IMG/VR virus record: IMGVR_UViG_651053023_000001
Location: 1-64,000 of that record
Reading direction: 5' to 3' (one strand)
Source of the DNA: a virus
Lineage: Duplodnaviria > Heunggongvirae > Uroviricota > Caudoviricetes
DNA: 64,000 nt
Each line of letters begins with the position of its first letter. Positions within the stretch are counted from its first letter, which is position 1. Under the pieces are notes generated by a model, which was not told the DNA's origin, did no database searches, and saw only the letters and a program-made list of their open reading frames with translations. Made by a program: the position numbers and the translations under genes. Below are positions 3,184-61,795 of this stretch, piece after piece.

Positions 3184-3401
3184 AGCCCCTCCTGAGCAGA
3201 AGCGTTAACAGGGAGGCACCAGTAACTGAGAGAATTGCGCAAATCGGTAGAAAAGCGGGCAGAGAAAATACAGGGAGCATCCGGAAGCTGAGAACGTGCC
3301 TCATCTTCTGTTGGTGCGATAACGAAGTGATAGTGACGTTTCTGGCAGGAGTAAAAGCGCCAGATAAATTCAGGGCGTGCGCAAGGATTGGCATTAACCA
3401 T
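3180..3401 (-). CDS. Icd-like small protein, copy A
   Basis: 73-aa ORF MVNANPCARPEFIWRFYSC... overlapping the ant start; same arrangement as icd-ant in the canonical immI copy. Confidence 0.7.
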   Translation of the reverse strand: MVNANPCARPEFIWRFYSCQKRHYHFVIAPTEDEARSQLPDAPCIFSARFSTDLRNSLSYWCLPVNASAQEGL

Positions 3402-3444
3402 AGTTACGGCCTCATGTACAGGTTTAACAACCTGCTACCCGCTG

Positions 3445-3525
3445 CTAAACGGGTGGCAGGACGTGACGGGGTTAGCAGACTGGCGTACATGAAACCAGCA
3501 GGCCGAAGCCTCCCCATCACGCCCC
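3445..3525 (-). ncRNA. c4-like antisense RNA, copy A (approximate bounds)
   Basis: Conserved leader block upstream of icd carrying a 6-nt element (ATGTAC in RNA sense) complementary to GTACAT overlapping the icd ribosome-binding site and to a second GTACAT further upstream. Confidence 0.4.
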
Positions 3526-3702
3526 ACCATAATTCGGGCGTAACGCGGTTTTACGGACATAAAAATACCGCAATATCGGAAATCTGCGGTTGTCCGCATG
3601 TACATTCAGGCTGCTAAACCCGGTCGCAGAATTTGCTACGACGTAGGAACTATAAGCCTGAACAACAGGAAGATCAATAGTCTGGCGTCCAATAGTAGTT
3701 TA

Positions 3703-3735
3703 TTTGCTCTAATAAATCAAATTTATTAGAGCAAT
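3703..3735. promoter_or_regulatory. overlapping head-to-head pair of C1 operator sites
   Basis: TTTGCTCTAATAAATCA on top strand and ATTGCTCTAATAAATTT on bottom strand, forming a palindrome. Confidence 0.65.
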
Positions 3736-3994
3736 AACAATCTAGTTGAATGTTTCCTCTCTGAGGTTGCAATGTGCACACTTAGTGCCTTATTTGTATG
3801 CACTAATAAATATATTATTTTTAACAATAAATAATTGACAACTGACAAGTGACTTCAGTCAGAATCATCACACGCCCGGTACGGATGGATCCCTTTTCAA
3901 ATATTCCATGGACGGCACAGTCTGAGTACCGGGCGCTACCTTAAGTTGTATTGCTAAGCCGCCGCTGGTGGCTTTTCTTTTTTGTAGGGGCGCT

Positions 3995-4636
3995 ATGGAT
4001 AAGAAAATATGCGTTGTTTCGATGAGCGTCGGCAAACCGGCGTCAATGACTGCTGCATGGATCAACAACGAGCTGATAATGGCTGAGCGGACCAGCTACC
4101 CTGAACGCCGCCGCGATATGGAACTCCAGCTGCTGCGCGAATTGCGAGAAAAAGAGGAAAAGGGTTTTATCGTGCTGGTGGAAGAGGAAAACAGCTTTAT
4201 TACTGGTCGAGTTGGCCAGCGTGTAAGGTTGCGCGATCCCTTCATGAACGGCAGGCCGGTACTAATTGAGGCCATGCAGATTTATAAGGAGCTGGAACGC
4301 CAGAAAGCAATCAAGTTACCGCGCAAGGAATCCGGCAAATACATCCTCCACCAAAGCATCTTCGATTCCGAACACGACAAAAAAGGCGATGAATTTTTCA
4401 ACATCAACTGGAGCGAAATAACGACAGAGCATGTTCTGACGTTACTATGTTGCTTTGCGACGGAATACAACAACGTTGCCAGCGCAGACTACATCAGGGC
4501 AATGGCTGGAGAAGTTGAGGCACGCCAGGAACCATCGTTACTAAGCCCTCTGATTAACATAATTCGCGGCACACAGAGACTTGCGGAAAAAAGCGTTCCA
4601 CACGGAATCTTAACTGGGAAGGGAAACTATTTTTAA
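3995..4636 (+). CDS. hypothetical protein (core of the inverted-repeat structure)
   Basis: ORF from ATG at 3995 (track ORF starts 3968) with AGGGG 5 nt upstream; no family recognised by eye. Confidence 0.5.
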   Translation: MDKKICVVSMSVGKPASMTAAWINNELIMAERTSYPERRRDMELQLLRELREKEEKGFIVLVEEENSFITGRVGQRVRLRDPFMNGRPVLIEAMQIYKELERQKAIKLPRKESGKYILHQSIFDSEHDKKGDEFFNINWSEITTEHVLTLLCCFATEYNNVASADYIRAMAGEVEARQEPSLLSPLINIIRGTQRLAEKSVPHGILTGKGNYF

Positions 4637-4669
4637 CATCCCCAAATCCTTTTGGGGAACAACTCATTC

Positions 4670-4987
4670 TTACAATAGCTGCCCCATACATTGTCTCCAG
4701 GCACTCCCCTCATTACCGTTATCAAGAAACGTAGAGGTTGCATAAGGAATGCCTCTGATTTGTGTTGATGTGAATGGACCATCAGACGTCGAAGTTGTGC
4801 GCAGTTTTGATGTAAACTCGTAATTTCCACTGATGCCTTTCTCTGCCAGAGCTTTTGATTTTGTGATAACTAAATCTGCACATTTCTCTGCGGCTACATA
4901 TTGCGGGTCTTTTTCAGCTTTTCCGGCACATGCAGTTATCGTTAAAACGATAGCTGCGGCTAACAAATTACCTAGTTTCATCTGCAT
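4670..4987 (-). CDS. small lipoprotein (signal peptide with lipobox LTITAC)
   Basis: 105 aa; N-terminal MQMKLGNLLAAAIVLTITAC is a typical lipoprotein signal peptide with cysteine; two further Cys in the mature part. Confidence 0.55.
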   Translation of the reverse strand: MQMKLGNLLAAAIVLTITACAGKAEKDPQYVAAEKCADLVITKSKALAEKGISGNYEFTSKLRTTSTSDGPFTSTQIRGIPYATSTFLDNGNEGSAWRQCMGQLL

Positions 4988-5086
4988 ACCTTATTAAGTG
5001 CATTAAAAACAGTAGGTTGCCAAGGTTTTAAACAAATTTCAATTCTCCATGACGCTCAACATGAGCAAAAATAACACACAACCCTC

Positions 5087-5120
5087 ATTGCTCTAATAAA
5101 TTTGATTTATTAGAGCAAAT
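5087..5120. promoter_or_regulatory. overlapping head-to-head pair of C1 operator sites
   Basis: ATTGCTCTAATAAATTT (perfect consensus) at 5087..5103 and its partner ATTTGCTCTAATAAATC on the bottom strand at 5104..5120. Confidence 0.65.
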
Positions 5121-5294
5121 ATCCTACCATTGCGCATAGCCCTATTGATCTCCTTACCGTTCAGGCTTATATTCATGCCGTCGTAGCAAATTCTGCGACC
5201 GGGTTTAGCAGCCTGAATACTTACGCGGACAACCGCAGATATCCGATATTGCGGTATTTTCATGTCCGTATAACCACGTTACGCCCGAATTATG

Positions 5295-5375
5295 GTGGGG
5301 CGTGATGGGGAGGCTTCGGCCTGCTGGTTTCGTAAGTGCCAGTCTGCTAACCCCGTCACGTCCTGCCACCTGTTT
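5295..5375 (+). ncRNA. c4-like antisense RNA, copy B (approximate bounds)
   Basis: Same conserved block as copy A but the 6-nt element is GTAAGT, complementary to ACTTAC at the icd ribosome-binding site (5404..5410) and at 5219..5225. Confidence 0.4.
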
Positions 5376-5420
5376 AGCAGCGGGTCGCAGGTTGTTTTAT
5401 CAACTTACGAGGCCGTAACT

Positions 5421-5642
5421 ATGGTTAATGCCAATCCTTGCGCACGCCCTGAATTTATCTGGCGCTTTTACTCCTGCCAAAAACGTCACTATCACTTCGT
5501 TATTGCACCAACAGAAGATGAGGCCCGCTCTCAGCTTCCTGACGCCCCATGTATTTTCTCTGCCCGCTTTTCTACCGATTCGCGCAATTCTCTCAGTTAC
5601 TGGTGCCTCCCTGTTAACGCTTCTGCTCAGGAGGGGCTATGA
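5421..5642 (+). CDS. Icd-like small protein, copy B
   Basis: 73 aa from ATG 5421 (track ORF 5292..5642 carries an unsupported N-terminal extension); one residue differs from copy A; overlaps the ant start. Confidence 0.7.
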   Translation: MVNANPCARPEFIWRFYSCQKRHYHFVIAPTEDEARSQLPDAPCIFSARFSTDSRNSLSYWCLPVNASAQEGL

Positions 5643-6757
5643 GAACGTCATTAGTCACCCGTGAAGAGATGATCGAGGCAATTGAACAGCACACTGCCTG
5701 TATCAGCACCAGGGATATACCAGGCGTTATTGCCAACTACTTCATGATCACCAAACAACTTTACCGGAGAAAGGACAAACACGCGGTTCACCGTATCCTG
5801 TTGTCTGATATCCGCGAATACCTGCTCGAACAGGGTCATCTGAATTACGCAACCGTCGCAGCCGAAGCACGCAAGGAGGCACACAGAATGAAAGCAACTA
5901 ACGTTAAATCAGAAAAAATTCATGCACCTTCAGTTCAGGAATCGGAGCTGGTGGTTGTTCAAAATCAGCCGGATGAAATTCCCGTTCTGGAATGGCAGGG
6001 AGTGCGTGTAGTGACAACCGAGACTCTTGCTAGAGGGTATGGGACAGAAACAATCCGTATTCGCCAAAATCATCATGAGAACAAAGTACGCTTTGTTGAA
6101 GGGAAGCACTTTTTCAAAGTTGAAGGAGAATCATTGCGCGAGTTGAAGCACAGAGTAGCTTTAAACTACTCTGTAAAAATTGCTCGCAATGTTCGCTCAC
6201 TCACCCTCTGGACAGAACGCGGCGCAGCCCGCCACGCTAAAATGCTCGAAACCGATCAGGCATGGGCATTCTTTGAAAAACTGGAAGACAGCTACTTCCG
6301 GCAAAAAGAACAGCAACCGGTTGCAATCCCCCAGACGCTTCCAGAAGCTCTGCGCCTGGCTGCCGAACTGGCTGAACAAAAGCAGCTTCTGGAACAGAAA
6401 GCCCACCAGCTAAATCAGCAGCTGGTGGCCGCCTCTCCTAAAGTCGATTTTGCCGACCGGGTATCAGTAGCTAAAGGGATCCTGATTGGGAATTTTGCAA
6501 AGGTTGTTGGTCTTAAGCAAAACGCGCTGTTTGCCTGGTTACGGGAGAACGGCATCCTGATAGCGTCCGGTGGACGTAAAAATGTGCCGTTCCAGCAGTA
6601 CATCAATGCGGGATATTTCACGGTGAAAGAAGTGGTGCTGGATGATGAAGATGGCTACCAGATACGGTTGACGCCTCAATTAACGGGTAAAGGCCAGCAG
6701 TGGTTGACGCGTAAACTGCTCGATGCTGGCTTGTTAAAACCGGTGGCGGCTGAATAA
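5639..6757 (+). CDS. antirepressor-like protein, copy B
   Basis: 372 aa; identical to copy A over the first ~131 aa and the C-terminal ANT/KilA-C domain, with a divergent patch between. Confidence 0.8.
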   Translation: MRTSLVTREEMIEAIEQHTACISTRDIPGVIANYFMITKQLYRRKDKHAVHRILLSDIREYLLEQGHLNYATVAAEARKEAHRMKATNVKSEKIHAPSVQESELVVVQNQPDEIPVLEWQGVRVVTTETLARGYGTETIRIRQNHHENKVRFVEGKHFFKVEGESLRELKHRVALNYSVKIARNVRSLTLWTERGAARHAKMLETDQAWAFFEKLEDSYFRQKEQQPVAIPQTLPEALRLAAELAEQKQLLEQKAHQLNQQLVAASPKVDFADRVSVAKGILIGNFAKVVGLKQNALFAWLRENGILIASGGRKNVPFQQYINAGYFTVKEVVLDDEDGYQIRLTPQLTGKGQQWLTRKLLDAGLLKPVAAE

Positions 6758-29520: not shown

Positions 29521-30081
29521 ATGCTAATAGGCTATGTACGCGTATCAACAAATGAACAAAACACTGCTTTACAACGAAACGCTCTTGAAAGCGCAGGATG
29601 TGAGCTAATTTTTGAGGACAAGGCGAGCGGCAAAAAGGCTGAACGCCCTGGGTTAAAAAAGGTTCTCCGTATGCTTTCCAGAGGTGACACCCTAGTCGTA
29701 TGGAAGTTAGATCGTCTTGGGCGCAGCATGCGTCACTTAGTTGTGCTGGTGGAAGAGCTGCGTGACAGAGGCATTAACTTCCGGAGTCTCACTGACTCCA
29801 TCGACACCAGTACACCAATGGGGCGCTTTTTCTTTCACGTAATGGGGGCGCTGGCTGAAATGGAACGTGAGCTTATCGTTGAACGTACACGCGCTGGACT
29901 TGATGCAGCTCGCGCAGAAGGTCGTATAGGTGGACGTCGGCCTAAATACCAAGAAGAAACATGGCAGCAAATGCGGCGATTGCTCGAGAAGGGCATCCCC
30001 CGTAAGCAGGTTGCAATCATCTATGATGTGGCTGTTTCCACGCTTTATAAGAAGTTTCCGGCGTCATCATTTCAATCCTAA
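29521..30081 (+). CDS. cin: Cin serine DNA invertase
   Basis: 186 aa; serine recombinase N-terminus MLIGYVRVSTNEQN...; abuts a cix site and the invertible segment. Confidence 0.92.
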   Translation: MLIGYVRVSTNEQNTALQRNALESAGCELIFEDKASGKKAERPGLKKVLRMLSRGDTLVVWKLDRLGRSMRHLVVLVEELRDRGINFRSLTDSIDTSTPMGRFFFHVMGALAEMERELIVERTRAGLDAARAEGRIGGRRPKYQEETWQQMRRLLEKGIPRKQVAIIYDVAVSTLYKKFPASSFQS

Positions 30082-30098
30082 ACCTTGGTTTAAGAGAA
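30073..30098 (-). other. cixL crossover site
   Basis: Bottom strand reads TTCTCTTAAACCAAGGTTTAGGATTG, a 26-bp site of the hix/gix/cix type with central AA. Confidence 0.75.
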
Positions 30099-30940
30099 CT
30101 CGGTACCAGCGGTGAAAAGATCCCCCTGTTGAGCACGGCTAACACATGGAGTTCACGCCAGACTTTCAACGGCGGGATCACCGGGGCGCTGGCAGGGAAT
30201 GCCGACACCGCGACGAAATTGAAAACAGCACGCTCGATTGGCGGTGTGGCATTTGATGGCTCGGCCAATATCAATCTTCCAGGTGTAAATACAACAGGTA
30301 ACCAGAACACCACGGGGAATGCTGCTACCGCGACGAAACTTGCGACGGCAAGAAACATCAACGGTGTTAAATTTGATGGTTCTGTGGACATTTCGATACC
30401 AACAATTACGTCCAGAGGGCGTGTTACTGCGCTCACCGGTACAACACAAGGTGCTGCTACTGGATTGCAAATGTATGAGGCGTACAACAACGGCTATCCT
30501 TCTGCTTACGGGAATGTGCTTCATCTTAAGGGCGCAACGGCAGTTGGTGAAGGTGAGTTGTTCATAGGTTGGAGCGGTACAAGTGGCGCTCATGCACCTG
30601 TACATGTACGTTCGCGACGAGATACTGATACAGCCAGTTGGTCAGAGTGGGCGCAGGTCTACACATCGAAGGATTCCATCCCTGGTGTAAATACCACGGG
30701 CAACCAGAACACAACCGGAAACGCGGCGTCTGCAACGAAATTACAAACGGCAAGAACTATTGGTGGTGTTTCATTTAATGGCACCGCAAACATCGACCTG
30801 CCGGGCGTGAATAAAACAGGTAATCAGAACACAACCGGTAATGCAGCGACAGCGACCAAGTTACAAACCGCTCGAACTATAAATGGGGTCTCGTTTGATG
30901 GTTCTAAAAATATTGAGCTAACGGCTGAAAATTTAAATCT
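30084..30940. repeat. left inverted repeat of the invertible C segment (~0.85 kb)
   Basis: Reverse complement of 33971..34827; identical translated ORFs on opposite strands (30153..30605 vs 34306..34758). Confidence 0.85.
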
Positions 30941-31097
30941 TGAGCGAACAGTAGAATTAGCCGCTGGGTCATTGCAGAAAAATCAGAACGGCGCGGATAT
31001 TCCTGGAAAGATACCTTCACTAAAAATATTGGTGCATGTCGCGCTTTTCACAGTTCTATTAGTACAGGTGCAGGGAACTGGACAACGGCACAATTGA
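30129..31097 (+). CDS. alternative tail-fibre variable segment Sv', N-terminal part (promoterless until inversion); apparently frameshifted near 31005
   Basis: Shares the IR-encoded repeat-rich region with S; after the IR the reading frame degenerates and stops. Confidence 0.5.
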   Translation: MSTANTWSSRQTFNGGITGALAGNADTATKLKTARSIGGVAFDGSANINLPGVNTTGNQNTTGNAATATKLATARNINGVKFDGSVDISIPTITSRGRVTALTGTTQGAATGLQMYEAYNNGYPSAYGNVLHLKGATAVGEGELFIGWSGTSGAHAPVHVRSRRDTDTASWSEWAQVYTSKDSIPGVNTTGNQNTTGNAASATKLQTARTIGGVSFNGTANIDLPGVNKTGNQNTTGNAATATKLQTARTINGVSFDGSKNIELTAENLNLERTVELAAGSLQKNQNGADIPGKIPSLKILVHVALFTVLLVQVQGTGQRHN

Positions 31098-31813
31098 TTG
31101 AATGGCTGGATTCTCAAGGGGCATTCAATCACCCATACTGGATGTGCAAATGTTCATGGTCGTACGGCAATAATAAAATTATAACCGATACTGGCTGTGG
31201 AACTATTCATCTTGCAGGTTGCGTTATTGAGGTTATGGGTAATAAAGGTGCCATGACCATCCGTGTAACAACACCAAGCACTTCCAGCGGTGGCGGAATC
31301 ACTAATGCTCAATTCACTTATATTAATCATGGTGATGCTTACGCTCCTGGCTGGCGACGAGACTACAACACGAAAAACCAGCAGCCTGCATTTGCTTTAG
31401 GGCAAACAGGACGCAGGGTCGCAAATGATAAAGCTGTTGGCTGGAACTGGAATAGCGGTGTTTATGATGCAGATATCAGTGGTGCATCGACATTAATCCT
31501 CCACTTCAATATGAATGCGGGGAGTTGCCCTGCTGTACAGTTCCGCGTGAATTACAGGAACGGCGGTATTTTTTATCGTTCAGCGCGTGATGGTTATGGC
31601 TTTGAAGCTAACTGGTCAGAGTTTTACACCACAACACGCAAACCCTCTGCGGGAGATGTTGGTGCATATACGCAGGCAGAATGTAACTCAAGGTTATTAC
31701 AGGTATTCGCCTTGGCGGTCTGTCATCTGTTAAGACATGGAATGGTCCCGGCTGGTCTGACAGGTCAGGTTATGTCGTTACAGGTTCAGTTAACGGAAAC
31801 CGTGATGAATTAA
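31094..31813 (+). CDS. Sv' tail-fibre C-terminal part (frame continues from ~30956)
   Basis: This frame is open from 30956 and encodes tail-fibre-like sequence ...KNIGACRAFHSSISTGAGNWTTAQLIEWLDSQGAF...; it overlaps the upstream frame for ~140 nt. Confidence 0.5.
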   Translation: MIEWLDSQGAFNHPYWMCKCSWSYGNNKIITDTGCGTIHLAGCVIEVMGNKGAMTIRVTTPSTSSGGGITNAQFTYINHGDAYAPGWRRDYNTKNQQPAFALGQTGRRVANDKAVGWNWNSGVYDADISGASTLILHFNMNAGSCPAVQFRVNYRNGGIFYRSARDGYGFEANWSEFYTTTRKPSAGDVGAYTQAECNSRLLQVFALAVCHLLRHGMVPAGLTGQVMSLQVQLTETVMN

Positions 31814-31886
31814 TTGATACAACTCAGGCAAGGCCAATTCAGTATTGCATTAATGGAACGTGGTATAACGCGGGGAGTATTTAATT

Positions 31887-32420
31887 ATGATGCACTTAAA
31901 AAATATTACTGCTGGCAACCCTAAAACAAAAGAGCAATACCAGCTAACGAAACAATTTAACATCAAATGGCTTTATACAGAGGATGGGAAAAACTGGTAT
32001 GAGGAACAAAAGAACTTTCAGCCTGATACGTTGAAAATGGTCTATGACCACAACAACGTTATTATTTGTATTGAAAAGGATGTTTCAGCAATTAATCCAG
32101 AAGGCGCAAGCGTCGTTGAGGTTCCTGATATTACAGCAAATCGCCGGGCTGATATTTCTGGTAAATGGATGTTCAAAGATGGCGTAGTGATAAAGCGAAC
32201 TTATACCGAGGAGGAACAGAGGCAGCAGGCAGAGAATGAAAAGCAAAGCCTGTTGCAACTTGTCAGGGATAAAACCCAGCTATGGGACTCACAGCTACGG
32301 CTGGGCATCATTTCCGACAAGAATAAACAAAAATTAACCGAGTGGATGCTCTATGCGCAGAAAGTCGAATCTACAGACACCTCCAGCCTGCCAGTAACAT
32401 TTCCCGAACAACCTGAATGA
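31887..32420 (+). CDS. tail-fibre assembly chaperone U'
   Basis: 177 aa, paralogous to the oppositely oriented U (shared [22 protein letters not shown]...ANRRAD...GKWMFKDG). Confidence 0.75.
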   Translation: MMHLKNITAGNPKTKEQYQLTKQFNIKWLYTEDGKNWYEEQKNFQPDTLKMVYDHNNVIICIEKDVSAINPEGASVVEVPDITANRRADISGKWMFKDGVVIKRTYTEEEQRQQAENEKQSLLQLVRDKTQLWDSQLRLGIISDKNKQKLTEWMLYAQKVESTDTSSLPVTFPEQPE

Positions 32421-32448
32421 GACAAGGCCCGATAGCGGGCCTTAATTT

Positions 32449-32976
32449 TTATTCAGGCTTTTGTGGCCATTCAGGATTTGCCGTATCCACACGGCTGACC
32501 AGAACACTGTAGCGTTCCCATGCTTCCAGTCGTGTGCGTTCCTCGTCTGTTGCCATATTCAACCTGACAGCGCGTTCCAGCGGCTGGATGACTGATTCAG
32601 CTTCGGAAAGCAATGCGGCCTTTTGTGATTCGGCTTGTTGTTGCTGTTCGTCTGCCGTATAAATCCGTTTAACTACAGATCCATCCTTAAACATCCACTT
32701 CCCTGAATCATCGGCACGACGATTGGCTGTTATATCTGGAATCTCAACGACACTAAAGCCTTCGGGATTAAGCGTTGAGGCATCTTTGGTTATGGCAACA
32801 ATAATATTATTTTCGTCGTATACAATCTTTATGGTGTCGTCCTGAAAGTTATTTACTTCCTCATACCAGTTTTTACCGTCTTCGGACCATAACCAGATAA
32901 CATCAAAATTCTTTGTTAGCTGATATTGTTCTTTCGTTTTAGGATTTCCAGACTTAATATTTTTTAAATGCTGCAT
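32449..32976 (-). CDS. tail-fibre assembly chaperone U
   Basis: 175-aa paralogue of U' directly downstream of S. Confidence 0.75.
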
Positions 32977-32979
32977 AAT

Positions 32980-35900
32980 TTACACCTGTGCTACGTTATA
33001 CCATGTGCCATTGATGTATTTTTGTATTGGTCTGAAGATGGCTTCATCATCGCCATCTACTTCACCAATGATTCTTAATCCGGTAATTGCGTGTCCGGCT
33101 TTTTCATAACGACCACCACGCGCCATCAATTGAACAACACGCGTACCCAGGCGAACATCTTTCACATAGCGTGAGTCAAAATTGCCATAATTTCCGGGAA
33201 TAATTTGCGCACCGCAAAGCCAGTTACCGTTATTGTCCATGTACGCCTGACCATCGGTGCCATTGGCTGTCCTTGAGTTATTAATCATGTAGATGCCAAA
33301 TTGCTTATTTCCCAGACCGCCAATCATAAATTTGCGGTCGGCATGGTCCTGACGGAGCAAGGCCTGAGCACCATCAGTGGATACCGCATTACGTCCCATA
33401 ATAACGTTCTGGTCACGCATATTAATCCACATGCCTGTACTGCTGTTAATAGCAAAACGGTCTGAAAGTGTCTCCCCTGAAACATTAAGGCCACGCCCCA
33501 TCGAAACAGCGCCAGTAGCGTTATTAATCCATAATGGCCTTAATCCGTTATAAGTCCCCATGTTGTCACCGGAGTTTGTCAACATGAAGTATGTATTTGA
33601 ACCATCATTACGAATAAAGAATCCGTAATTACCATAAGCAATACGTAGGCCGTTTGCTGATTTTGATATGACTTCGCCATTTACAATGGCATTGACAAGA
33701 ACATACAAAGCATCCCATTTAAGATTCATCAGGTCTTTTGTTGTGGTGCTTTGTTTGCTTCTCCATTTGAAATATTCATTGCCGTTGTCGCCTGTTTCAA
33801 ACCACATGTATGAATCAGTGTCACCATCAGCATCATTTTTAAATCCAATCTTCGCCCAGTCAGTATTTCGAATCCAGGCAAGGATTGAGTCATTTTTAAA
33901 AGTAAGCCCACCGGACAAAGTATCGCCTGAACGCTGAACGGCATTATTTGCTTTATTAATAAATTCCTGTAGATTTAAATCTTCCGCCGTTAGCTCAATA
34001 TTTTTAGAACCATCAAACGAGACCCCATTTATAGTTCGAGCGGTTTGTAACTTGGTCGCTGTCGCTGCATTACCGGTTGTGTTCTGATTACCTGTTTTAT
34101 TCACGCCCGGCAGGTCGATGTTTGCGGTGCCATTAAATGAAACACCACCAATAGTTCTTGCCGTTTGTAATTTCGTTGCAGACGCCGCGTTTCCGGTTGT
34201 GTTCTGGTTGCCCGTGGTATTTACACCAGGGATGGAATCCTTCGATGTGTAGACCTGCGCCCACTCTGACCAACTGGCTGTATCAGTATCTCGTCGCGAA
34301 CGTACATGTACAGGTGCATGAGCGCCACTTGTACCGCTCCAACCTATGAACAACTCACCTTCACCAACTGCCGTTGCGCCCTTAAGATGAAGCACATTCC
34401 CGTAAGCAGAAGGATAGCCGTTGTTGTACGCCTCATACATTTGCAATCCAGTAGCAGCACCTTGTGTTGTACCGGTGAGCGCAGTAACACGCCCTCTGGA
34501 CGTAATTGTTGGTATCGAAATGTCCACAGAACCATCAAATTTAACACCGTTGATGTTTCTTGCCGTCGCAAGTTTCGTCGCGGTAGCAGCATTCCCCGTG
34601 GTGTTCTGGTTACCTGTTGTATTTACACCTGGAAGATTGATATTGGCCGAGCCATCAAATGCCACACCGCCAATCGAGCGTGCTGTTTTCAATTTCGTCG
34701 CGGTGTCGGCATTCCCTGCCAGCGCCCCGGTGATCCCGCCGTTGAAAGTCTGGCGTGAACTCCATGTGTTAGCCGTGCTCAACAGGGGGATCTTTTCACC
34801 GCTGGTACCGAGTTCTCTTAAACCAAGGTATTGGATAACAGCAAGAACGCTTGTTTTGGCCAGAATATCGCGACCAACTGACGTTAAGTCAGTCTGAGAA
34901 ACAGTGTCTGTACCGGTAAAGTACGGCAATTTATTTGCGCCTGTCGCAAGACCAGCAAGCGCGGTTAAAGTTGCATCAAGTGGCTGTTTCCCTGCCAGCG
35001 CATTTGTCATTGTTGTCGCAAAGTTCGGGTCATTGCCCAGTGCTGCTGCAAGCTCATTCAGGGTATCAAGAGCTTCAGGTGATGAGCCGACCAATGCAGA
35101 GATAGCAGCCCGTACGTAAGCAGTCGTAGCGATCTGCGTATTGTTTGTGCCCTGTGCAGCCGTAGGCGCAGTAGGGACACCCGTTAATGCAGGGCTTGCC
35201 AAAGGCGCTTTGAGAGCCAAGGCATTGTTGATAGTTGTGCTGTAATTCGGGTCGTTATTGATCGCAGCCGCTATTTCTTTCAGCGTATCCAGTGTGCCAG
35301 GCGCACCGTTGATAAGTGCAGTTATAGCTGCCTTAACAAAGGCTGTATTTGCGATCTGCGTGCTGTTTGTACCTTGCGCTGCCGTCGGCGCTGTTGGCGT
35401 TCCTGTCAGACTCGGGCTTTCTATTGGCGCTTTGGTATCAGCCAGATCTTTTATAGACTTAACAGCTTTAGGGGTAGCCGCCATTGTTTCGCTGTCGCTG
35501 TTAGTTGCGCTACTGAGCTGAACTAATCCCTTTTGCGTTGTGCTTGCATCCTGCGCCGTATACTTGCTTTTCGCCAGATCGTAGGCTTTTTTAACTGCCA
35601 GCGAACTTGCCGCAACATCACTTCTGGTACTGGTTACAGAGTCTGAAATATCAATGCCGATAGTGCGGTTGATACGCTCTGATGTATCAATCATCTCTTG
35701 GGTAATGGCAGATACACCAGCAGGAATATTCACCGTACAAACAAGCAGCTCTCCATCTCCTAACTGATATGAATCGGTATAGGTTCTGGCAATAAATTCA
35801 GCCGCATGAATATGTGACGCTGTATTAACCTGATAGGTATCTTCTCCAAGGAGGTATCTTCCCTTCAGCACAATTGCATATTTCTTGCCTGCACTAAGTG

Positions 35901-36186
35901 CAAGAGAAATATCCTTACGGTGCTGAATAGTTACCTGGTAGAATTCACCAATATCCACCGACGCCGCGCCTGCGGTTTTATCACCATCCACTGAGGTGAT
36001 TAACAGGTTCATCCCACCGCCAGGCTTAGGTAAGAAACCGGCATAAAATCCCGGGTCAACAATCCCCCTGAATTTTCGGTTTAGCGCGGCTGACAGATAT
36101 GGTTCGTGGTATTGCACATCAGCCACCAGAGCCAACGACTCGGGTGATGGGTAAGTAACTGATGTAACAACTGTAACGTCATTCAT
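32980..36186 (-). CDS. tail-fibre protein S (constant Sc part fused to variable Sv in this orientation)
   Basis: Start set at ATG 36186 (AAGGA upstream; track ORF starts 36273); repeated PGVNTTGNQNTTGNAATATKL motifs; spans cixR. Confidence 0.8.
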   Translation of the reverse strand: MNDVTVVTSVTYPSPESLALVADVQYHEPYLSAALNRKFRGIVDPGFYAGFLPKPGGGMNLLITSVDGDKTAGAASVDIGEFYQVTIQHRKDISLALSAGKKYAIVLKGRYLLGEDTYQVNTASHIHAAEFIARTYTDSYQLGDGELLVCTVNIPAGVSAITQEMIDTSERINRTIGIDISDSVTSTRSDVAASSLAVKKAYDLAKSKYTAQDASTTQKGLVQLSSATNSDSETMAATPKAVKSIKDLADTKAPIESPSLTGTPTAPTAAQGTNSTQIANTAFVKAAITALINGAPGTLDTLKEIAAAINNDPNYSTTINNALALKAPLASPALTGVPTAPTAAQGTNNTQIATTAYVRAAISALVGSSPEALDTLNELAAALGNDPNFATTMTNALAGKQPLDATLTALAGLATGANKLPYFTGTDTVSQTDLTSVGRDILAKTSVLAVIQYLGLRELGTSGEKIPLLSTANTWSSRQTFNGGITGALAGNADTATKLKTARSIGGVAFDGSANINLPGVNTTGNQNTTGNAATATKLATARNINGVKFDGSVDISIPTITSRGRVTALTGTTQGAATGLQMYEAYNNGYPSAYGNVLHLKGATAVGEGELFIGWSGTSGAHAPVHVRSRRDTDTASWSEWAQVYTSKDSIPGVNTTGNQNTTGNAASATKLQTARTIGGVSFNGTANIDLPGVNKTGNQNTTGNAATATKLQTARTINGVSFDGSKNIELTAEDLNLQEFINKANNAVQRSGDTLSGGLTFKNDSILAWIRNTDWAKIGFKNDADGDTDSYMWFETGDNGNEYFKWRSKQSTTTKDLMNLKWDALYVLVNAIVNGEVISKSANGLRIAYGNYGFFIRNDGSNTYFMLTNSGDNMGTYNGLRPLWINNATGAVSMGRGLNVSGETLSDRFAINSSTGMWINMRDQNVIMGRNAVSTDGAQALLRQDHADRKFMIGGLGNKQFGIYMINNSRTANGTDGQAYMDNNGNWLCGAQIIPGNYGNFDSRYVKDVRLGTRVVQLMARGGRYEKAGHAITGLRIIGEVDGDDEAIFRPIQKYINGTWYNVAQV
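33971..34827. repeat. right inverted repeat of the invertible C segment
   Basis: Reverse complement of 30084..30940. Confidence 0.85.
34813..34838 (+). other. cixR crossover site
   Basis: TTCTCTTAAACCAAGGTATTGGATAA on top strand, inverted relative to cixL, inside the S gene at the Sc/Sv junction. Confidence 0.75.
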
Positions 36187-38980: not shown

Positions 38981-39336
38981 AGCACCACGTCCTGTGTGAT
39001 AGTTATATCCCTGATACGAATGGATATTTTCAACTTATCAAAAGCATCTCCCTCGGCTACTGACAAGCCAGAAATCGGTATGTCAGGTAAATCTACCGTC
39101 AGTTTTTGCAACAGCATTGCCTCAACCGCAATTTGAACATGCGACAAGTTGGTCGGTTCGTGTTTAAACTGCGGTAAAACATTGCCCCATGACGGATCCC
39201 CGTATACCTCACCCTGATAAGTGTTTAGCCACTCATATAAACGAGCGCCCCAGGCCTCCTCTTGGGACTCATACGTTTTTACGCCGGATAACTCCAGCGT
39301 CAGCAAAGGATCAATTTCGTTATTGTTGGCCATCAA
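38977..39336 (-). CDS. small tail morphogenesis protein
   Basis: 119-aa ORF between the sit-like and baseplate genes. Confidence 0.4.
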   Translation of the reverse strand: MMANNNEIDPLLTLELSGVKTYESQEEAWGARLYEWLNTYQGEVYGDPSWGNVLPQFKHEPTNLSHVQIAVEAMLLQKLTVDLPDIPISGLSVAEGDAFDKLKISIRIRDITITQDVVL

Positions 39337-42300
39337 TCAACTCTCGCGTAGTCATTCATCAACGGATCATCAATTGACAGTGGCACCGTGCGCATAACGC
39401 CCGGTTGAGGCGTGCTGACCTTTACGACAGTTCCCTGGCCTTTCGCCGAGTCTTTAGTGTGCTCTTCAATCCTGGCAAGCAATGAGGTCATCTGCGCAAA
39501 CAGCCGCTTCGTTTCACCATCAAGTGAAACGGTATTATCAGCCAACTGCATTGTCGGCTTGGCACCGGAGCCGCCAAGGTCACTAATAACCTGTCCGTCT
39601 ATCTGCATACGACCGGTTGGTTGCTGCAAATCGTTGGCGGCAGTCGTCACCTGGGACGTGGAGGCTGGTTCAGGCGCATTATTTTTCCGCATCCCCGGCG
39701 AGTTGCGGAGTTTATCGAATAGTCCATCAATCCCCATTTGTGCGCCGAGCTGGTCAAAGTAACTTGAGTTGTTGGCCACCGGACGCGCCTCTTCAACTGG
39801 CATCGGGGTATCAACATACACATTGCCAGCTGCTGTTGCGGTCCCCTTCCCTCGTGCACGTTCTTCGAGCGTTCCCTGAACGACTTCCCGACGCATACCC
39901 CGGCCATTCATGAATTTGTTGACCAGATCGTTAACGCCAACAGCATTGCCGATTTTGTCTACCAGACCGCCTTTCTCAAACGGGCTATCACCAGGGGTAA
40001 ACGCCAAGCCAGTAGACTGATCGATAACAGCGTTATCAGGCAGTGGTCCCCTCACTCCATATTGCGCCCCACCCTGTGCTCCTGCTCCAGGTGTATAGAT
40101 TTCACCACCTAAATAGCGAGCACGATGAGTATTGACCTTGATCGCGTACTCACGGTTTTCTTTCGATAAGTCACCTGTGCCTTTTTTCCACTTATTGATA
40201 GTGCCAAACCCAGCGTTATATGCAGTGATGGCCTCGTTTAAGTCTCCATTGGCTTGCTTCAGATACTTGCTCATGAGAAGAGCCGCAGCTTCTGCCGATT
40301 TCACAGGATCAAACGATTCACCTTCAGCTAAGCCAGTCTCTTCACGAGCAATCCCCGTGAACTGAAACATTCCCAGAGCACCGGTTTGGGATTTTGCATA
40401 CGGATTACCACCAGATTCAGTTGCAGCAATCGCGTAAAGAGTGCCTTCTGGAAGACCGTATTTATTCTCTAGTTCGGCAAAATACGGAGCCAACTTATCG
40501 AGATTTGCCTTACCTTCAGCGCCAAGACTTCCGACTTTTACATCTAAGTTGCCATTGTTGTAAGTATCCGCAGCTTTCTGAATGTCATTCCTGGTGCCAG
40601 TAGTATTAAGCGACGATGATGATGAGCTATTTTGACCAATAGCATTATCAATTTTCTGCAACGCGCTATTGCCCGTTTCTACGGCATTTGCATTGATAAT
40701 CTGATTGGCAGTTTCTTTAACTGTTTTATTGCTATCTTTCGCCGTATCTAGGGATGCATTTACAACACGAGTGACAATATTAGCCTTTTTAGGGGTATAT
40801 TCAGTCTTAGGAGCATTGTCCTCCTGACTTTCTTTAGCTGGTGTTTTTAATTCAGGTGTAACCTCTTTCGCATCCGCTTTGTTGACTAGCTTTGATGCAA
40901 CCCAGGCCACAGGGGTGCTCTGAACAGCGGCATCTGCAACCTCACCTGAAAGCTCTTTTGCGGCACTCCATAGATTACTGCCAGCTTCTTTAATGTATTT
41001 CCCTGGGTTCTTAATGAAATCAATTGCACTATCAATTGCATCACTGAAAACCTGTTTCAGGTTATCGACAGTAAAGAAGTTTTTGATGGCGTCTAATTTT
41101 TCGTTCAGGTTCTTTGTTGTGTCACTGAACCATGCTGAAATAGCATCACCAATCTTTGCAGTATAATCACTAAATGTCGTGGATATAGTATCACCAAGGT
41201 TAGAAATATATGTTTCTAAATTGGTAATCCCACTATCAATGGCCTGGGCAATACTTTCCGTCGAAAATGATTGCAACATATTGCCGATATCCTCAAATCC
41301 AAGTGATTTGAGAACGCCGCCAATGGCACTGCTAATACCAGATACCAGTCCTCCCATATCGAGAACGTTAGCCAGTGTATAAGCCGCTTTTTGCTGAAAA
41401 GATGGATCTTCCCCATCCTTAAGCCCAAAGGTCCGACGTTGTGCTTCTGTATCATTCCAACCGGTTACCGCATCATAGATACCTCCAGCCACCGTGCCGA
41501 CTAGCGGAATTGCGCGTAAAGCCCCCTTTGCAAGAGCCTTAACACCTAGTTTCCCCAATCCCTTAGTTGCAAGTTTTCCGGCACCGCGAGTAGCCAATTC
41601 GCCAGCTTCTTTGGCAGCAGCTTTTTTCCCACCAAAGCCCAATAAGCTTGCAACTTTTTTTATACCTAAAGCGCCTAGTGCCATCGAGCCAACTTTCTTT
41701 AGTACCCCACGGCCAAAAATAAGGGAAGCAATACCACCGGCCCCCTTCCCTAACAGGCTAAATAGTTTGGACAGCAAGCCGCCCTTCTTTTTCCCGGTGT
41801 TTTTGGCTATCTGATCAAGGGCGCTGAGAATCTTGTCATTGCCCTCTTTAATTTCGCTGGTCTGCTCCTGAAGTTCCTGAACCGTCCGTTTTTGGGTGTT
41901 AACCTGAACGACATCGGCACTATTTTGCGATTTACGCCTAAAAAAACCTTTTCTACGGCTGTTATCGTCATTGCCACGAATCACATCGGCAATAGACTTT
42001 CTGGCACCATTAAGCGATCCACCAACTTCTTTTGATATCCCGCCAAGCTCCTTCCCTGCTGCCCACAATGGACCAGCAACGGCATAACCTAACGCATCGA
42101 CGGCACGAGTCTCTGAAGGGTTACCTATGCCTTCAGCTACTTTTGACAGTTTTTTTAATAAACCTGATTCAGCATTTAGACGCTCATCATCCTCTTTGCG
42201 CCTGGCCTTTTCAGCACGTTCAGCACGGGCATCTTCCGCTGCGGCCTTACTCCCTGACTTTCCAATAAAACGACCACGCGCATCGCGTTGGTTTTGGCTT

Positions 42301-43028
42301 TTTTGCGCACCGCCTTTTTGATCGAACATTTTGCGAGCGTGTTCGGCTGCTTCGGTCCGTTGTGCCTTTATATCCTCTGGTATAGCCTTCCTGCGTCGTT
42401 TTTTACCCTTTGGTGTAGTTGATTTGGCCTGCTGTTCCTGTTGAGCAATGCCCTCCTGAACTACACGAGAAACGTCCCCTAAATTAAGCCGTTTCATTGC
42501 ATCAACAATAGGGTCTACTGATGGCGCATTGGCCACAAAGTCTGGCCGGGAATTTTCGATTGTTCGATTTAATGCCGACACACTGCGAGATACTGGGTCA
42601 ACCGTTGCAACGCGTTCCCCTTTCAAATCACGATCGAGTTTGACCGTTTCTAACCGCTGTGCTTTAACATCCTCTGTTATTGCCTCTCTTCGTCTATTTG
42701 GGGGATTGTGCGCTGTTGGTGCAGCCTGCTGTTCACGGTTAGTGACTTTGTCCTCCCGTATACGAGAAACGTCCCCTAAATTAAGCCGTTTCATTGCGTC
42801 AACAATAGAGTCCACTGATGGCGCATTGGTCACAAAGTCAGGACGTGAATTTTCGATTGTGCGATTTAATGCCGACACACTGCGAGAGACAGGATCAACA
42901 GTTGCAACTCGTTCCCCTTTCAAATCTTCAACAGCTTCCCGAATACCTGCAAGCTCTTCCAGCTCTTTCGCGCTGGCGGTTTCAACTGTCCTTATAACAT
43001 CGTCAATATTGGCGTTTTTTCTTTCCAT
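39333..43028 (-). CDS. sit: Sit-like tape-measure/injection protein with lytic transglycosylase domain
   Basis: 1231 aa; SLT-type motif ...ATESGGNPYAKSQTGALGMFQF...; Gly/Ala/Lys-rich central region; internal tandem duplication. Confidence 0.8.
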   Translation of the reverse strand: MERKNANIDDVIRTVETASAKELEELAGIREAVEDLKGERVATVDPVSRSVSALNRTIENSRPDFVTNAPSVDSIVDAMKRLNLGDVSRIREDKVTNREQQAAPTAHNPPNRRREAITEDVKAQRLETVKLDRDLKGERVATVDPVSRSVSALNRTIENSRPDFVANAPSVDPIVDAMKRLNLGDVSRVVQEGIAQQEQQAKSTTPKGKKRRRKAIPEDIKAQRTEAAEHARKMFDQKGGAQKSQNQRDARGRFIGKSGSKAAAEDARAERAEKARRKEDDERLNAESGLLKKLSKVAEGIGNPSETRAVDALGYAVAGPLWAAGKELGGISKEVGGSLNGARKSIADVIRGNDDNSRRKGFFRRKSQNSADVVQVNTQKRTVQELQEQTSEIKEGNDKILSALDQIAKNTGKKKGGLLSKLFSLLGKGAGGIASLIFGRGVLKKVGSMALGALGIKKVASLLGFGGKKAAAKEAGELATRGAGKLATKGLGKLGVKALAKGALRAIPLVGTVAGGIYDAVTGWNDTEAQRRTFGLKDGEDPSFQQKAAYTLANVLDMGGLVSGISSAIGGVLKSLGFEDIGNMLQSFSTESIAQAIDSGITNLETYISNLGDTISTTFSDYTAKIGDAISAWFSDTTKNLNEKLDAIKNFFTVDNLKQVFSDAIDSAIDFIKNPGKYIKEAGSNLWSAAKELSGEVADAAVQSTPVAWVASKLVNKADAKEVTPELKTPAKESQEDNAPKTEYTPKKANIVTRVVNASLDTAKDSNKTVKETANQIINANAVETGNSALQKIDNAIGQNSSSSSSLNTTGTRNDIQKAADTYNNGNLDVKVGSLGAEGKANLDKLAPYFAELENKYGLPEGTLYAIAATESGGNPYAKSQTGALGMFQFTGIAREETGLAEGESFDPVKSAEAAALLMSKYLKQANGDLNEAITAYNAGFGTINKWKKGTGDLSKENREYAIKVNTHRARYLGGEIYTPGAGAQGGAQYGVRGPLPDNAVIDQSTGLAFTPGDSPFEKGGLVDKIGNAVGVNDLVNKFMNGRGMRREVVQGTLEERARGKGTATAAGNVYVDTPMPVEEARPVANNSSYFDQLGAQMGIDGLFDKLRNSPGMRKNNAPEPASTSQVTTAANDLQQPTGRMQIDGQVISDLGGSGAKPTMQLADNTVSLDGETKRLFAQMTSLLARIEEHTKDSAKGQGTVVKVSTPQPGVMRTVPLSIDDPLMNDYARVD
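42470..42940. repeat. tandem duplication (~297-bp period) inside the sit 5' region
   Basis: Protein repeat DLKGERVATVDPVSRSVSALNRTIENSRPDFV.NAPSVD.IVDAMKRLNLGDVSR occurs twice ~97 aa apart; mirrored in the antisense ORF 42529..43056. Confidence 0.6.
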
Positions 43029-56346: not shown

Positions 56347-57348
56347 TTAAGGCTTCGGCTTTTTATCGAGGCTCTTTCTAAGGATATGCCCAATCATCCT
56401 GTCGAGTTCTTCCTGTAACTCTTTTGAGAGTCGATTAAACTCATAAGAAAATGCACGGCCTTTCACGCGCTTCCTTGCAAAGCGATCCTTGTCCTCAAAT
56501 TTCCATAATTCAGTAACTACGGACTTATCTTTAGAACCTTTATCCGTGAGTAGTGAGGCTTCCTTTGTTATCAAGCGCAGGATTTTATTTTTAACTTCAT
56601 CTTCGGCCATTTCTTCAATGGATAAGATGTCGTTTATTTCCGGGGATATGTTTTGAATAAGCTGATCAAACTCTAAATTCTTGTTCCCCATTTCGTCGCC
56701 AACAGCACAAAGCGTTTTGTAGTCCGAAAAGGTTAATTCCGACTGCACAGGGAAAAGGGCGACTAATTCTTCCGGAGCACTCGCTGCCTGGAGAGCACGC
56801 GTGACCTTCGCCTGAGACAGCCCTTCTTTGGCTGCAATATCCTTCTGACTCATCCCATCATTTTTCATTCGCATCAAACGCAGACCTATTTCTCGAATGC
56901 TGTGCTGCAATGCTGTCTGAACGTCTTTCGCTAAATTTTGCGCTTCCTGAACGCTGATCTCCTGGTCCGTGACTAAAACCCGCAATCCTACGTTCTCTAA
57001 GATGGCAGAAGCTCGACGCCGGGAACCATCCAAAATTTCAATTTTCCCTGTAGCCCGTCTAACACCTATTGCAGGGTAAAATTGCTGATGCTTAATAGTG
57101 CTTCGGATACTTTTTAATGATTTTGGCGTAAGAGATGCCTGGTCACGCCCGTTGTTATGCTGATCAACAAAGGTATCGCTTTCTACCTGGTTCGGAGGAA
57201 TTACCTCCTCGATAAATGTGGCCTGGCGACCAGTAGATAACTTGAATACCTGCTCGACTCGATCGCCAGAGGCTGAAGAACTATCAAATCCGCTTAATAT
57301 TGAAGGATTAAGGGTTCGCCCAATTGTTGGTCTGTTTTTCTTTGACAT
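56347..57348 (-). CDS. parB: ParB partition protein
   Basis: 333-aa ORF MSKKNRPTIGRTLNPSILSGFDSS... recognised as P1 ParB; downstream of parA. Confidence 0.93.
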   Translation of the reverse strand: MSKKNRPTIGRTLNPSILSGFDSSSASGDRVEQVFKLSTGRQATFIEEVIPPNQVESDTFVDQHNNGRDQASLTPKSLKSIRSTIKHQQFYPAIGVRRATGKIEILDGSRRRASAILENVGLRVLVTDQEISVQEAQNLAKDVQTALQHSIREIGLRLMRMKNDGMSQKDIAAKEGLSQAKVTRALQAASAPEELVALFPVQSELTFSDYKTLCAVGDEMGNKNLEFDQLIQNISPEINDILSIEEMAEDEVKNKILRLITKEASLLTDKGSKDKSVVTELWKFEDKDRFARKRVKGRAFSYEFNRLSKELQEELDRMIGHILRKSLDKKPKP

Positions 57349-57364
57349 GGGGGTTTCTTACTCC

Positions 57365-58561
57365 TCAGTTAGATCTGATAAATTCAATACGGTCAAAAAC
57401 TGCTTTAGCAAAATCTTCCGCGGCAATTCGCGCGTTCTTCAATGCATCAGCACTACCAACATACGTTGCCGGGTTAGCTGAAATAACAGTGTCAAAAGAC
57501 TCGCCGCAACGTTCAAAACCGTCAAGGCGAGGGAGGACGACATCGAGCATATCCCCACCGAACACTTCTTTAGCCAAGCTATGGCAATACTTATGATCTG
57601 CCTTGTTACTCAACTTGGACATAAAACCAATGTTAGTCGCAAGCTGGCACTCGCAGCCTTCATCAGAAATGAGTTTCACCAACTCAGGAAGGCGGGCAAC
57701 GTATTTAAGCGATGAGTGGAAATCGACAGTTGCTGGCGGCAGAGGTGTAAACAGTATATTGGCCGAGGCCAAAGCATTTTTCAGGAAGGCGTCAAGGTGA
57801 GGACCACTATCAACGAGGATAAAGTCATAATCGCTCTTCAGCTTATCAATCACATTTTCTTTCAGGACTGCATGGATGTTCTGACCCGGTAGATGCTCAT
57901 TGCACAGCTCTCTCCAATCGGATGCAATAAAGGCATCGTCAATCGACGCAGGCATAACGTCAACCCCAGGTACAACAGAAGGAACAATAAACTCCTCTAA
58001 CAGCTCTTCACGGCTTACATTCTGCAACATAGCCTGTGCAGATGTTGCGTTTACGATACCAATAGAGTGTTTATGGCTTAAAAACATCGTTGCTGAAGAT
58101 TGCGGATCAAGGTCAATAACCAGAATTCTTAAATCTTCCATCAGAAGATGAGGGTGGGCACGCATTGCATGCGCCAGAGAAACCGTCGATACAGTTTTTG
58201 ACACACCGCCTTTAAGATTGGAGATGAAAATCACATACGCTTCGCTGTAGCGATCCCGGTATTTTGGCACTCCGCGATGTTCATATATGTCAATGATGTT
58301 CTGAATTGACATCGCATATTTCATTGAAGAGCCAGCAGGGCGTTTATCGAAAACATAACCCTTTTCTTCCATTTCACTTACGGCATAGTCAACGTTCGCT
58401 CGAGTCAGTAGAGGCAATTTTGCCAGTGCCGCTTTCGCATAGACCTGGTAAAACTCGTTCGCGTGTAGCTCATCCTTTTGCAACTGTACTTGTTCAGTCA
58501 GAACATTGAGCATTCTGTTTGCTCTTTGAGCAACCTTGTGAAGCTGGCTGGAATCACTCAT
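57365..58561 (-). CDS. parA: ParA partition ATPase
   Basis: 398-aa ORF with deviant Walker A NLKGGVSKT; N-terminus MSDSSQLHKVAQRANRMLNVLTEQ... recognised as P1 ParA. Confidence 0.95.
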   Translation of the reverse strand: MSDSSQLHKVAQRANRMLNVLTEQVQLQKDELHANEFYQVYAKAALAKLPLLTRANVDYAVSEMEEKGYVFDKRPAGSSMKYAMSIQNIIDIYEHRGVPKYRDRYSEAYVIFISNLKGGVSKTVSTVSLAHAMRAHPHLLMEDLRILVIDLDPQSSATMFLSHKHSIGIVNATSAQAMLQNVSREELLEEFIVPSVVPGVDVMPASIDDAFIASDWRELCNEHLPGQNIHAVLKENVIDKLKSDYDFILVDSGPHLDAFLKNALASANILFTPLPPATVDFHSSLKYVARLPELVKLISDEGCECQLATNIGFMSKLSNKADHKYCHSLAKEVFGGDMLDVVLPRLDGFERCGESFDTVISANPATYVGSADALKNARIAAEDFAKAVFDRIEFIRSN

Positions 58562-58834
58562 CGAAAGTCATCCTTTATGCTGTATTTTTGAATTTAATTA
58601 AAAATGCTGCATAAAATAATAATGTATGCGTAGATGCTTGTACATAGCGTTCTCTGCATGTTTACTCCTTTGCCAAGTGTGTCACAACATGCTTTGGCAT
58701 CCTCCACGCATAAACGAAGCGGATTTCTTCTACGTTCAGGTTGTAGCCTGAATCATTTTGGTGATTTCCTGCTTCAACGGGCAGCAAGGCTTCACTCTCT
58801 ATCAACTAGTGAGAACGGCTTGCCCGGCAGCATC

Positions 58835-59120
58835 GATGTGTGCTGGAGGGAGAATAAAAGTCTAAGATGTGCGATAGAGGGAAGTCGCATTGAATTATGT
58901 GCTGTGGAGGGATCGCTGGTATCAAATATGTGTGCTGGAGGGAAAGGCAGATAATTACATGTGCACTGGAGGGAAAAACGGATGGACAGATGTGTGCTGG
59001 AGGGAAAGTCTGGGCAAACTGCGGGGCGTCCCCCTCCAGCGCACATCAAAAACGGGAAATTAGACAAGCCTTCCCGGCAGCACACATTTTTTTAATGCAG
59101 CTGCCCTCCAGCACACACTT
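58835..59120. repeat. incA iteron array (about nine ~19-bp RepA-binding repeats)
   Basis: Repeats of GATGTGTGCTGGAGGGAAA and variants in both orientations, downstream of repA. Confidence 0.85.
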
Positions 59121-59979
59121 ATTCGGGGAGTTTCAGCTTTGGATTGCGAGAATGGACGATTACAAAACTTTCCCGGCCTTTCTTCTCAATTGAACAGTCG
59201 AGATAGCCGATTGTTTTAAGCTGTTCTATCGCTTTCTTAATGATACGGTTTTGCTCGCCAACAGCCGACTGCAAAGCCAGGCGCTCACGGATTCGCGCGA
59301 ACGATAGCGGCAACGGGTTCTGCGGAAGGCTTTCGATAAAAGTGTAAATGGCTTGTGCTGCTTCTTTCTTCGGAAGGGCACGCAAGGCGTGGTGCTGCAA
59401 CAGGACGCGATAATCAAGCTGGAACAGCTCCCACAGCTTCGAGTCGGCTTCCAGCTCGATCAGATCGAGGTCAGCATCGAAACGTCCGACCTTCAACAGA
59501 CCAGTCTGGTAGCCACCTTTAGCATCTTTACCACGCTTAAAAGCGATACCCTTGTTACGCAAGCGCCCAAGTGATTCATGAATGGTTAAACGCAGTTTCG
59601 CATCCAGACGTTTTGAGGGGAAACCACAGGCTTTAGCGAATTCCTGAAACGATAACTGGATGGTGTTTGAGGACAAGCCGTATTTGCTGAACGCGTAGAT
59701 AACACCGATCCACGTTTTGAAATCAGTATCCATATCGAGTCGAGGACCGGTGATTTTAATGTCATCGTAACCTTCTGCTTTAGCTATCTCCAGCTGGGAA
59801 AACGCTTTGGTGGCATCAATCTCTTTACTTTCTCCTTTGCTCTTTGATGGCTTCGGCACGAATACCCCCAAGCGCATCAACGCTACAGGCTGCACAGTGT
59901 TGTTTGAATTAACTGTTAGTTCTTTTGCCTTACTTTCAATGTCTGCGTAAAGAATATCGGAGATAAAAGATTGATTCAT
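59119..59979 (-). CDS. repA: RepA plasmid replication initiator
   Basis: 286-aa ORF MNQSFISDILYADIESKAKELTVNSNN... recognised as P1 RepA; flanked by incC and incA iterons. Confidence 0.95.
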   Translation of the reverse strand: MNQSFISDILYADIESKAKELTVNSNNTVQPVALMRLGVFVPKPSKSKGESKEIDATKAFSQLEIAKAEGYDDIKITGPRLDMDTDFKTWIGVIYAFSKYGLSSNTIQLSFQEFAKACGFPSKRLDAKLRLTIHESLGRLRNKGIAFKRGKDAKGGYQTGLLKVGRFDADLDLIELEADSKLWELFQLDYRVLLQHHALRALPKKEAAQAIYTFIESLPQNPLPLSFARIRERLALQSAVGEQNRIIKKAIEQLKTIGYLDCSIEKKGRESFVIVHSRNPKLKLPE

Positions 59980-61682: not shown

Positions 61683-61795
61683 AGCAGCGACTAAACTTGA
61701 TCGATAGGAATTTAAATCCCCAAAAGACTAAAAAAGCACCACAAAACGGATGTTTCTTCAACACCCCTTGTGCACCATATGAGCGGAAACGACTA

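Follow-up and report, generated by a model that had tools for sequence, protein, structure and literature searches.

Two single-base deletions in the silent tail-fibre segment Sv' of a P1-like phage-plasmid

Background

Invertible segments that switch the host range of a phage by exchanging the end of its tail fibre are a known system, represented by the C-segment of P1 and the G-segment of Mu. In P1, the fibre S has been reported to bind the outer core of LPS, while S' has been reported to bind O-antigen (PMC13172314, PMC10028697). The S' fibre of P1 has also been used for delivery into Shigella, an O-antigen-bearing host (PMC13172314, PMC10028697). Loss of the switch has been described as well. 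The natural P1-like plasmids pJIE250-3, pSvP1 and pTZ20_1P have lost one or both of its arms and have kept plasmid maintenance (PMC6906374). In these plasmids cin is truncated or reversed, or the C-segment has been deleted or rearranged by IS (PMC6906374).

Here we analyse a stretch of 64,000 nucleotides, positions 1 to 64,000 of the IMG/VR virus record IMGVR_UViG_651053023_000001, which we will refer to as the window. Across its backbone it shares about 96-99% identity with P1 and P1-like plasmids. A preliminary description had recognized in it the alternative fibre segment Sv' of a P1-like C-segment, and gene order and homology to P1 and Mu bear this out. The locus is an ordinary tail-fibre host-range switch of the P1 type (the class of the P1 C-segment and the Mu G-segment) in a P1-like phage-plasmid. 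It differs from pJIE250-3, pSvP1 and pTZ20_1P in that the switch machinery appears intact and only one arm is lost, by two point frameshifts.

Results

Architecture of the switch

Gene order and orientation are like those of the P1 C-segment (Table 1). The Cin protein has 100% amino acid identity to P1 Cin, the recombinational enhancer inside cin has 0 mismatches to P1, and the cixL region that follows the gene is the same as the annotated P1 cixL over 43 nt. It was through this last identity that the cixL crossover was placed. The cixR site has its inner half-site in common with cixL. A repeat search reported the two repeat arms as 100% complementary; the outermost cix half-site shows two mismatches between them. 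Between cixL and cixR lies an invertible segment of about 4.74 kb (30086-34825), compared with 4.26 kb in P1. It holds two opposed cassettes, each consisting of a fibre C-terminus and a Tfa chaperone, with Sv' and U' on the plus strand and Sv and U on the minus strand. Depending on the orientation set by Cin, the constant 5' part of S would be joined to Sv with U behind it, or to Sv' with U' behind it. Judged by these sequence comparisons, the Cin/C-segment machinery of the window is apparently intact.

Table 1. Features of the switch locus in window coordinates
Feature	Position	Strand	Properties
cin, serine DNA invertase flipping the C-segment	29521-30081	+	Pfam Resolvase (4.6e-51) and HTH_7
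Inverted repeat, left arm	30075-30940		866 nt; cixL at outer end; crossover 30085/30086
Sv' fragment A, frame that inversion would fuse to Sc	30087-31097	+	correct to ...ADIPGK (31009), then 28 out-of-frame residues; TGA 31095-31097
Frameshift site 1	31007-31009	+	AAA where all relatives have AAAA; one-base deletion
Sv' fragment B, receptor-binding-domain coding sequence	31010-31693	+	second frame
Frameshift site 2	31694-31695	+	TT where relatives have TTT; one-base deletion
Sv' fragment C, conserved C-terminal 63 residues	31696-31885	+	third frame; ends ...CINGTWYNAGSI before the stop
Private substitution in Sv'	31732	+	C>A, Gln>Lys in SSVQTWNG; invariant in 75-81 relatives; Q in 8ju3
U', assembly chaperone partner of S'	31887-32420	+	intact; Pfam Caudo_TAP (1.2e-36)
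Private substitution in U'	32319	+	E>K; site invariant in 70-81 relatives
U, chaperone of the expressed fibre	32449-32976	-	intact; Pfam Caudo_TAP (5e-37)
S (Sc + Sv), fibre expressed in the deposited orientation	32980-36186	-	1068 aa; intact
Inverted repeat, right arm	33971-34836		866 nt; cixR at outer end; crossover about 34825/34826

The repeats are longer than those of P1 (about 0.62 kb). They hold extra tail-fibre repeat units, and the prefix common to S and S' is 735 aa. Because the repeats carry these extra units, S is also longer than in P1, where it has 987 aa; in a tblastn search it matches P1 S over the full length in a single frame. U' has 95% amino acid identity to P1 U'. Downstream of position 30837, Sv' is about 94-95% identical in nucleotides to that of P1, but the P1 Sv' is one open frame and the one in the window is broken twice. 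Nucleotide identity to S' of the Mu G-segment is 87%, whereas the N-terminal shaft and the invertase are of the P1 type (Cin, not Gin).

Two frameshifts in Sv'

The silent Sv' is broken by two one-base deletions relative to its relatives. In a three-frame translation, the frame that enters Sv' from the repeat (phased from 30087/30129) reads ...LQKNQNGADIPGK and then turns into nonsense, and the tblastn match to residues 1-213 of the P1 Sv' goes no further than 31010. DNA alignments to P1, Mu, phage vB_EcoM-12474II and plasmid pLD93-1-90kb place the cause at site 1, where one A is missing from GGAAAAGA, giving GGAAAGA. BLAST of the whole window against P1 and MH422554 agrees. The preliminary description was therefore right in finding this frame implausible up to its stop at 31097 and in suspecting a single missing A in the run around 31005..31010. 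Homologues that follow the 30129..31097 frame colinearly to its stop would have contradicted it; the homologues, including 8ju3, take the shifted frame instead.

The second frame had been described as open from 30956 and as encoding the fibre C-terminus through 31813. Its tail-fibre sequence is real, and the frame of fragment B has a dN/dS of 0.12 relative to P1. However, the frame opens at 30944, after a TGA at 30941-30943, and its end (stop 31811-31813; listed ORF 31094-31813) is itself a product of a frameshift: the last 39 or so residues of this ORF are out of frame because of the shift at site 2. There the same alignments show AAGGTTTATT changed to AAGGTTATT. The conserved C-terminal end, ...FITGIRLGGLSSV.TWNG...ARPIQYCINGTWYNAGSI before the stop (also read as FITGIRLGGLSSV.TWNGPGWSDRSGYVVTGSVNGNRDELIDTTQARPIQYCINGTWYNAGSI), is found in the third frame, and the true stop of Sv' is at 31883-31885, with the ATG of U' at 31887, one base further on.

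Hence restoring one A does not fuse everything into a single Sv' of about 560 aa, as had been proposed; both bases are needed. With one A and one T added, a stop-free frame of 585 codons extends from 30129, and P1 is exactly two bases longer over the corresponding stretch. A tblastn search with P1 Sv' gives matches in three frames, split exactly at the two deletion sites. The C-terminal 317 aa of the corrected Sv' match the Mu S' fibre (PDB 8JU3) end to end, colinear with residues 170-488 of 8ju3 and through both frameshift sites, which lie inside the match (E=2.4e-191). This colinear match emerges only once the A and the T are inserted. As encoded, single-frame homology to the C-terminus fails, and the copy in the window stops 263 codons early. 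In contrast to the PDB sequence search, a Pfam search of the corrected Sv' told us little, giving only a sub-threshold match to gp37_C.

Effect on the S' fibre

When the segment 30086-34825 is inverted in silico, S' as encoded has 790 aa, of which the last 28 are nonsense; with both bases restored it has 1053 aa. Only the S cassette yields a complete in-frame fibre, S' being cut short. Almost nothing of the domain solved in 8ju3 is left in the 790-aa S', and the conserved extreme C-terminus is missing from it as well. Because tail fibres of this kind need both the C-terminal domain and the Tfa chaperone, we infer that the truncated S' would be non-functional. Virions of the C(-) orientation would then be without a functional fibre, and only the S orientation would give infectious phage. 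It is the apparent integrity of the switch machinery that would make the lesion in Sv' matter functionally.

Distribution among relatives

The extra base is present in 83 of the 83 relatives that cover site 2, which were unselected in this respect, and in 90 of the 90 that cover site 1, a count that is partly selected since the intact site-1 pattern had served to retrieve most of these relatives (IMG/VR loci). With the base present in every relative covering each site, the breakage of Sv' is not a chance pattern. Exact-pattern scans of IMG/VR and of GTDB representative genomes gave 0 matches to the deleted version of site 1 and 0 to that of site 2, while the intact site-1 pattern had 92 matches in IMG/VR. 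In JGI metagenomes nothing homologous to the deleted version of site 1 was found, the 3 matches being unrelated 22-nt chance matches. A short-query megablast of 5,426 complete E. coli genomes, with 618 matching records for site 2, revealed no gap-free copy at either site.

The closest intact alleles are those of IMGVR_UViG_2778261418_000014 (L079) and IMGVR_UViG_2909272501_000006 (L075), both in a P1-like context. They are 98.8% identical over the unique part of Sv' (9 mismatches in 946 nt) and have AAAA and TTT in a single open frame, where the window has AAA and TT. No near-identical record of the window was found in phage, plasmid or complete E. coli collections. The exact S protein of the window is not on record elsewhere either, which leaves the element without a second, independent assembly.

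As a separate observation, the homologous C-terminal domain of the tail fibre has frame breaks at other positions in about 4 of the 88 IMG/VR relatives (L095, L026, L014 and L033), which shows that broken copies are no rarity in databases.

Discussion

Genuine inactivation or artefact

A sequencing error in a homopolymer and a genuine inactivation had been put forward as the two candidate causes at the outset, and this was the right pair to consider. Neither of them is a new mechanism: Sv' has been lost to the ordinary decay of a gene, or the record has a local error of sequencing. We think that a recent genuine inactivation is probably the best explanation. A slippage frameshift in a short homopolymer (A4 to A3, or T3 to T2) of the dispensable, unexpressed Sv' most likely came first; a second neutral lesion and substitutions under relaxed selection in the Sv'-U' module would have followed. 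The two deletions would then be independent of each other and recent.

The main evidence comes from a window-wide comparison of indels with P1, MH422554, NZ_CP080059 and the longer IMG/VR loci, in which two or more references, at 93% identity or higher, were available for 52.4 kb. Just three uncompensated indels in these 52.4 kb set the window apart from all references covering the site: an intergenic one at 2017 and the two deletions in Sv'. Apart from the Sv' deletions, no uncompensated coding indel in about 52 kb is private to the window. If errors were uniformly scattered, the probability of two falling within one stretch of 0.95 kb would be about 3e-4. Full-length single-frame matches in the window were obtained for 46 of the 54 P1 proteins tested, and Sv' is the only P1 protein that is divided over different reading frames (three of them). 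The P1 proteins without a full-length match correspond to absent or replaced genes, to the divergent parA and parB, to sit, which is expanded in frame, and to upfB, which is split by an IS91 insertion. A generally error-prone assembly can be excluded, there being no window-wide signature of error. Scattered error is a less likely cause than pseudogenisation when both private frameshifts lie in a single dispensable segment and the remaining 52 kb or so are free of them.

Substitutions are in line with this, though their statistics rest on very small counts. Between 22 and 45 kb, backbone genes carry seven private substitutions, and all seven are synonymous. In the Sv'-U' module all four private changes (Q>K, E>K and the two frameshifts) alter protein, as expected under relaxed selection; on the S-U side there are 3 non-synonymous and 3 synonymous private changes. 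Tail-fibre genes often show non-synonymous variation anyway. In the corrected frame, dN/dS is 0.04-0.15 (relative to P1, Mu and pLD93), which leads us to reject long-standing pseudogene decay: if the lesions are real at all, they must be very recent. Real decay is present elsewhere in the element, where an insertion of the IS91 family divides upfB, and we count this in favour of a genuine inactivation.

Alternatively, Sv' might be intact in the real phage, the two missing bases being local consensus errors in short homopolymers. Such errors could arise if reads over the invertible segment were few or mixed, with two orientations present in the culture, or from cross-mapping of reads from paralogous prophage fibre genes. 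Several facts fit this possibility. Both lesions are single-base homopolymer deletions, the classic type of sequencing and polishing error, and both are singletons, unique to this record among the public records searched. The strong purifying selection seen in the corrected frame is what an intact gene would show. E. coli chromosomes commonly carry homologous fibre segments of 85-92% identity, which could mislead polishing, an invertible and paralogue-rich context could degrade the consensus locally, and some of the single frame breaks seen in the same domain of IMG/VR relatives may be errors too. Nevertheless, we consider an artefact rather unlikely. The affected runs are short (4 and 3 bases), whereas errors concentrate in long homopolymers. 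At the density of errors that Sv' would imply, roughly 100 would be expected elsewhere, but there are 0 coding ones in about 52 kb despite many longer homopolymers. Assembly is hardest in the 866-nt flanking repeats, yet these are clean, and homopolymer error leaves the adjoining non-synonymous substitutions in Sv' and U' unexplained.

One may also ask whether the frameshifts are bypassed during expression, by -1 ribosomal frameshifting or by transcriptional slippage, so that a full-length S' is made after all. At site 1 the wild-type ...PGKDTFT... sequence would indeed be recreated if tRNA-Lys slipped by -1 from AAG to AAA. But neither site has a slippery heptamer of the X XXY YYZ form (they read U GGA AAG and A AGG UUA), transcriptional slippage would need runs much longer than A3 and T2, and two separate -1 events would be required. 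Moreover, the protein is encoded in one frame in relatives, neither shift occurs in about 90 of them, and the breaks in four relatives are elsewhere. Programmed frameshifting is rejected on both motif and conservation, and we regard recoding of any kind as extremely improbable.

What the lesions would mean

With a genuine inactivation as the preferred reading, the loss of Sv' is a trivial variation on known gene decay in a system that is already known. If the lesions are real, the alternative host range of this P1-like element has been lost and part of its progeny would be non-infectious. The element would then be a further case of P1-like phage-plasmids drifting to a plasmid-only life (PMC6906374). 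A more speculative suggestion is that, with genuine lesions and an intact Cin, the switch has become an ON/OFF phase switch of infectivity instead of a host-range toggle. If this were true, the C(-) state would make fibre-less particles that do not adsorb, which a lineage living mainly as a plasmid might tolerate or even benefit from slightly. We find this suggestion very unlikely.

For annotation, either the record should be corrected or Sv' should be marked as a doubly frameshifted pseudogene segment. The ORFs 30129-31097 and 31094-31813 are not to be annotated as separate tail proteins.

Other features of the element

The homologue of upfB is split into residues 1-141 (63946-63524) and residues 140-262 (61700-61332). 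The insertion of about 1.8 kb between them (61701-63523) carries an IS91-family Y2 transposase ORF on the minus strand (61796-63169; Pfam Y2_Tnp and Zn_Tnp_IS91), and its junction with upfB at 61700/61701 is spanned by no PLSDB plasmid.

No homologues of P1 simB/simC, rlfA/rlfB, pmgF or ref were found within the window. The place of P1 ref and res/mod is occupied by 2071-6757, which contains two inverted copies of an antirepressor gene (ANT/KilAC and ORF6N domains) at 2071-3183 on the minus strand and 5639-6757 on the plus strand, together with an icd-like piece at 3183-3401. These genes resemble the immI ant/icd region, with 80-86% nucleotide identity.

In P1 the sit product has 1140 aa; that of the window (39333-43028) has 1231 aa, with an enlarged N-terminal region and with every indel compensated in frame. 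A central block at about 40390-41529 is divergent, with 85% nucleotide identity. The maintenance module (56347-59979) is mosaic: RepA is 100% identical in amino acids to that of P1, while ParA and ParB are 58% and 43% identical.
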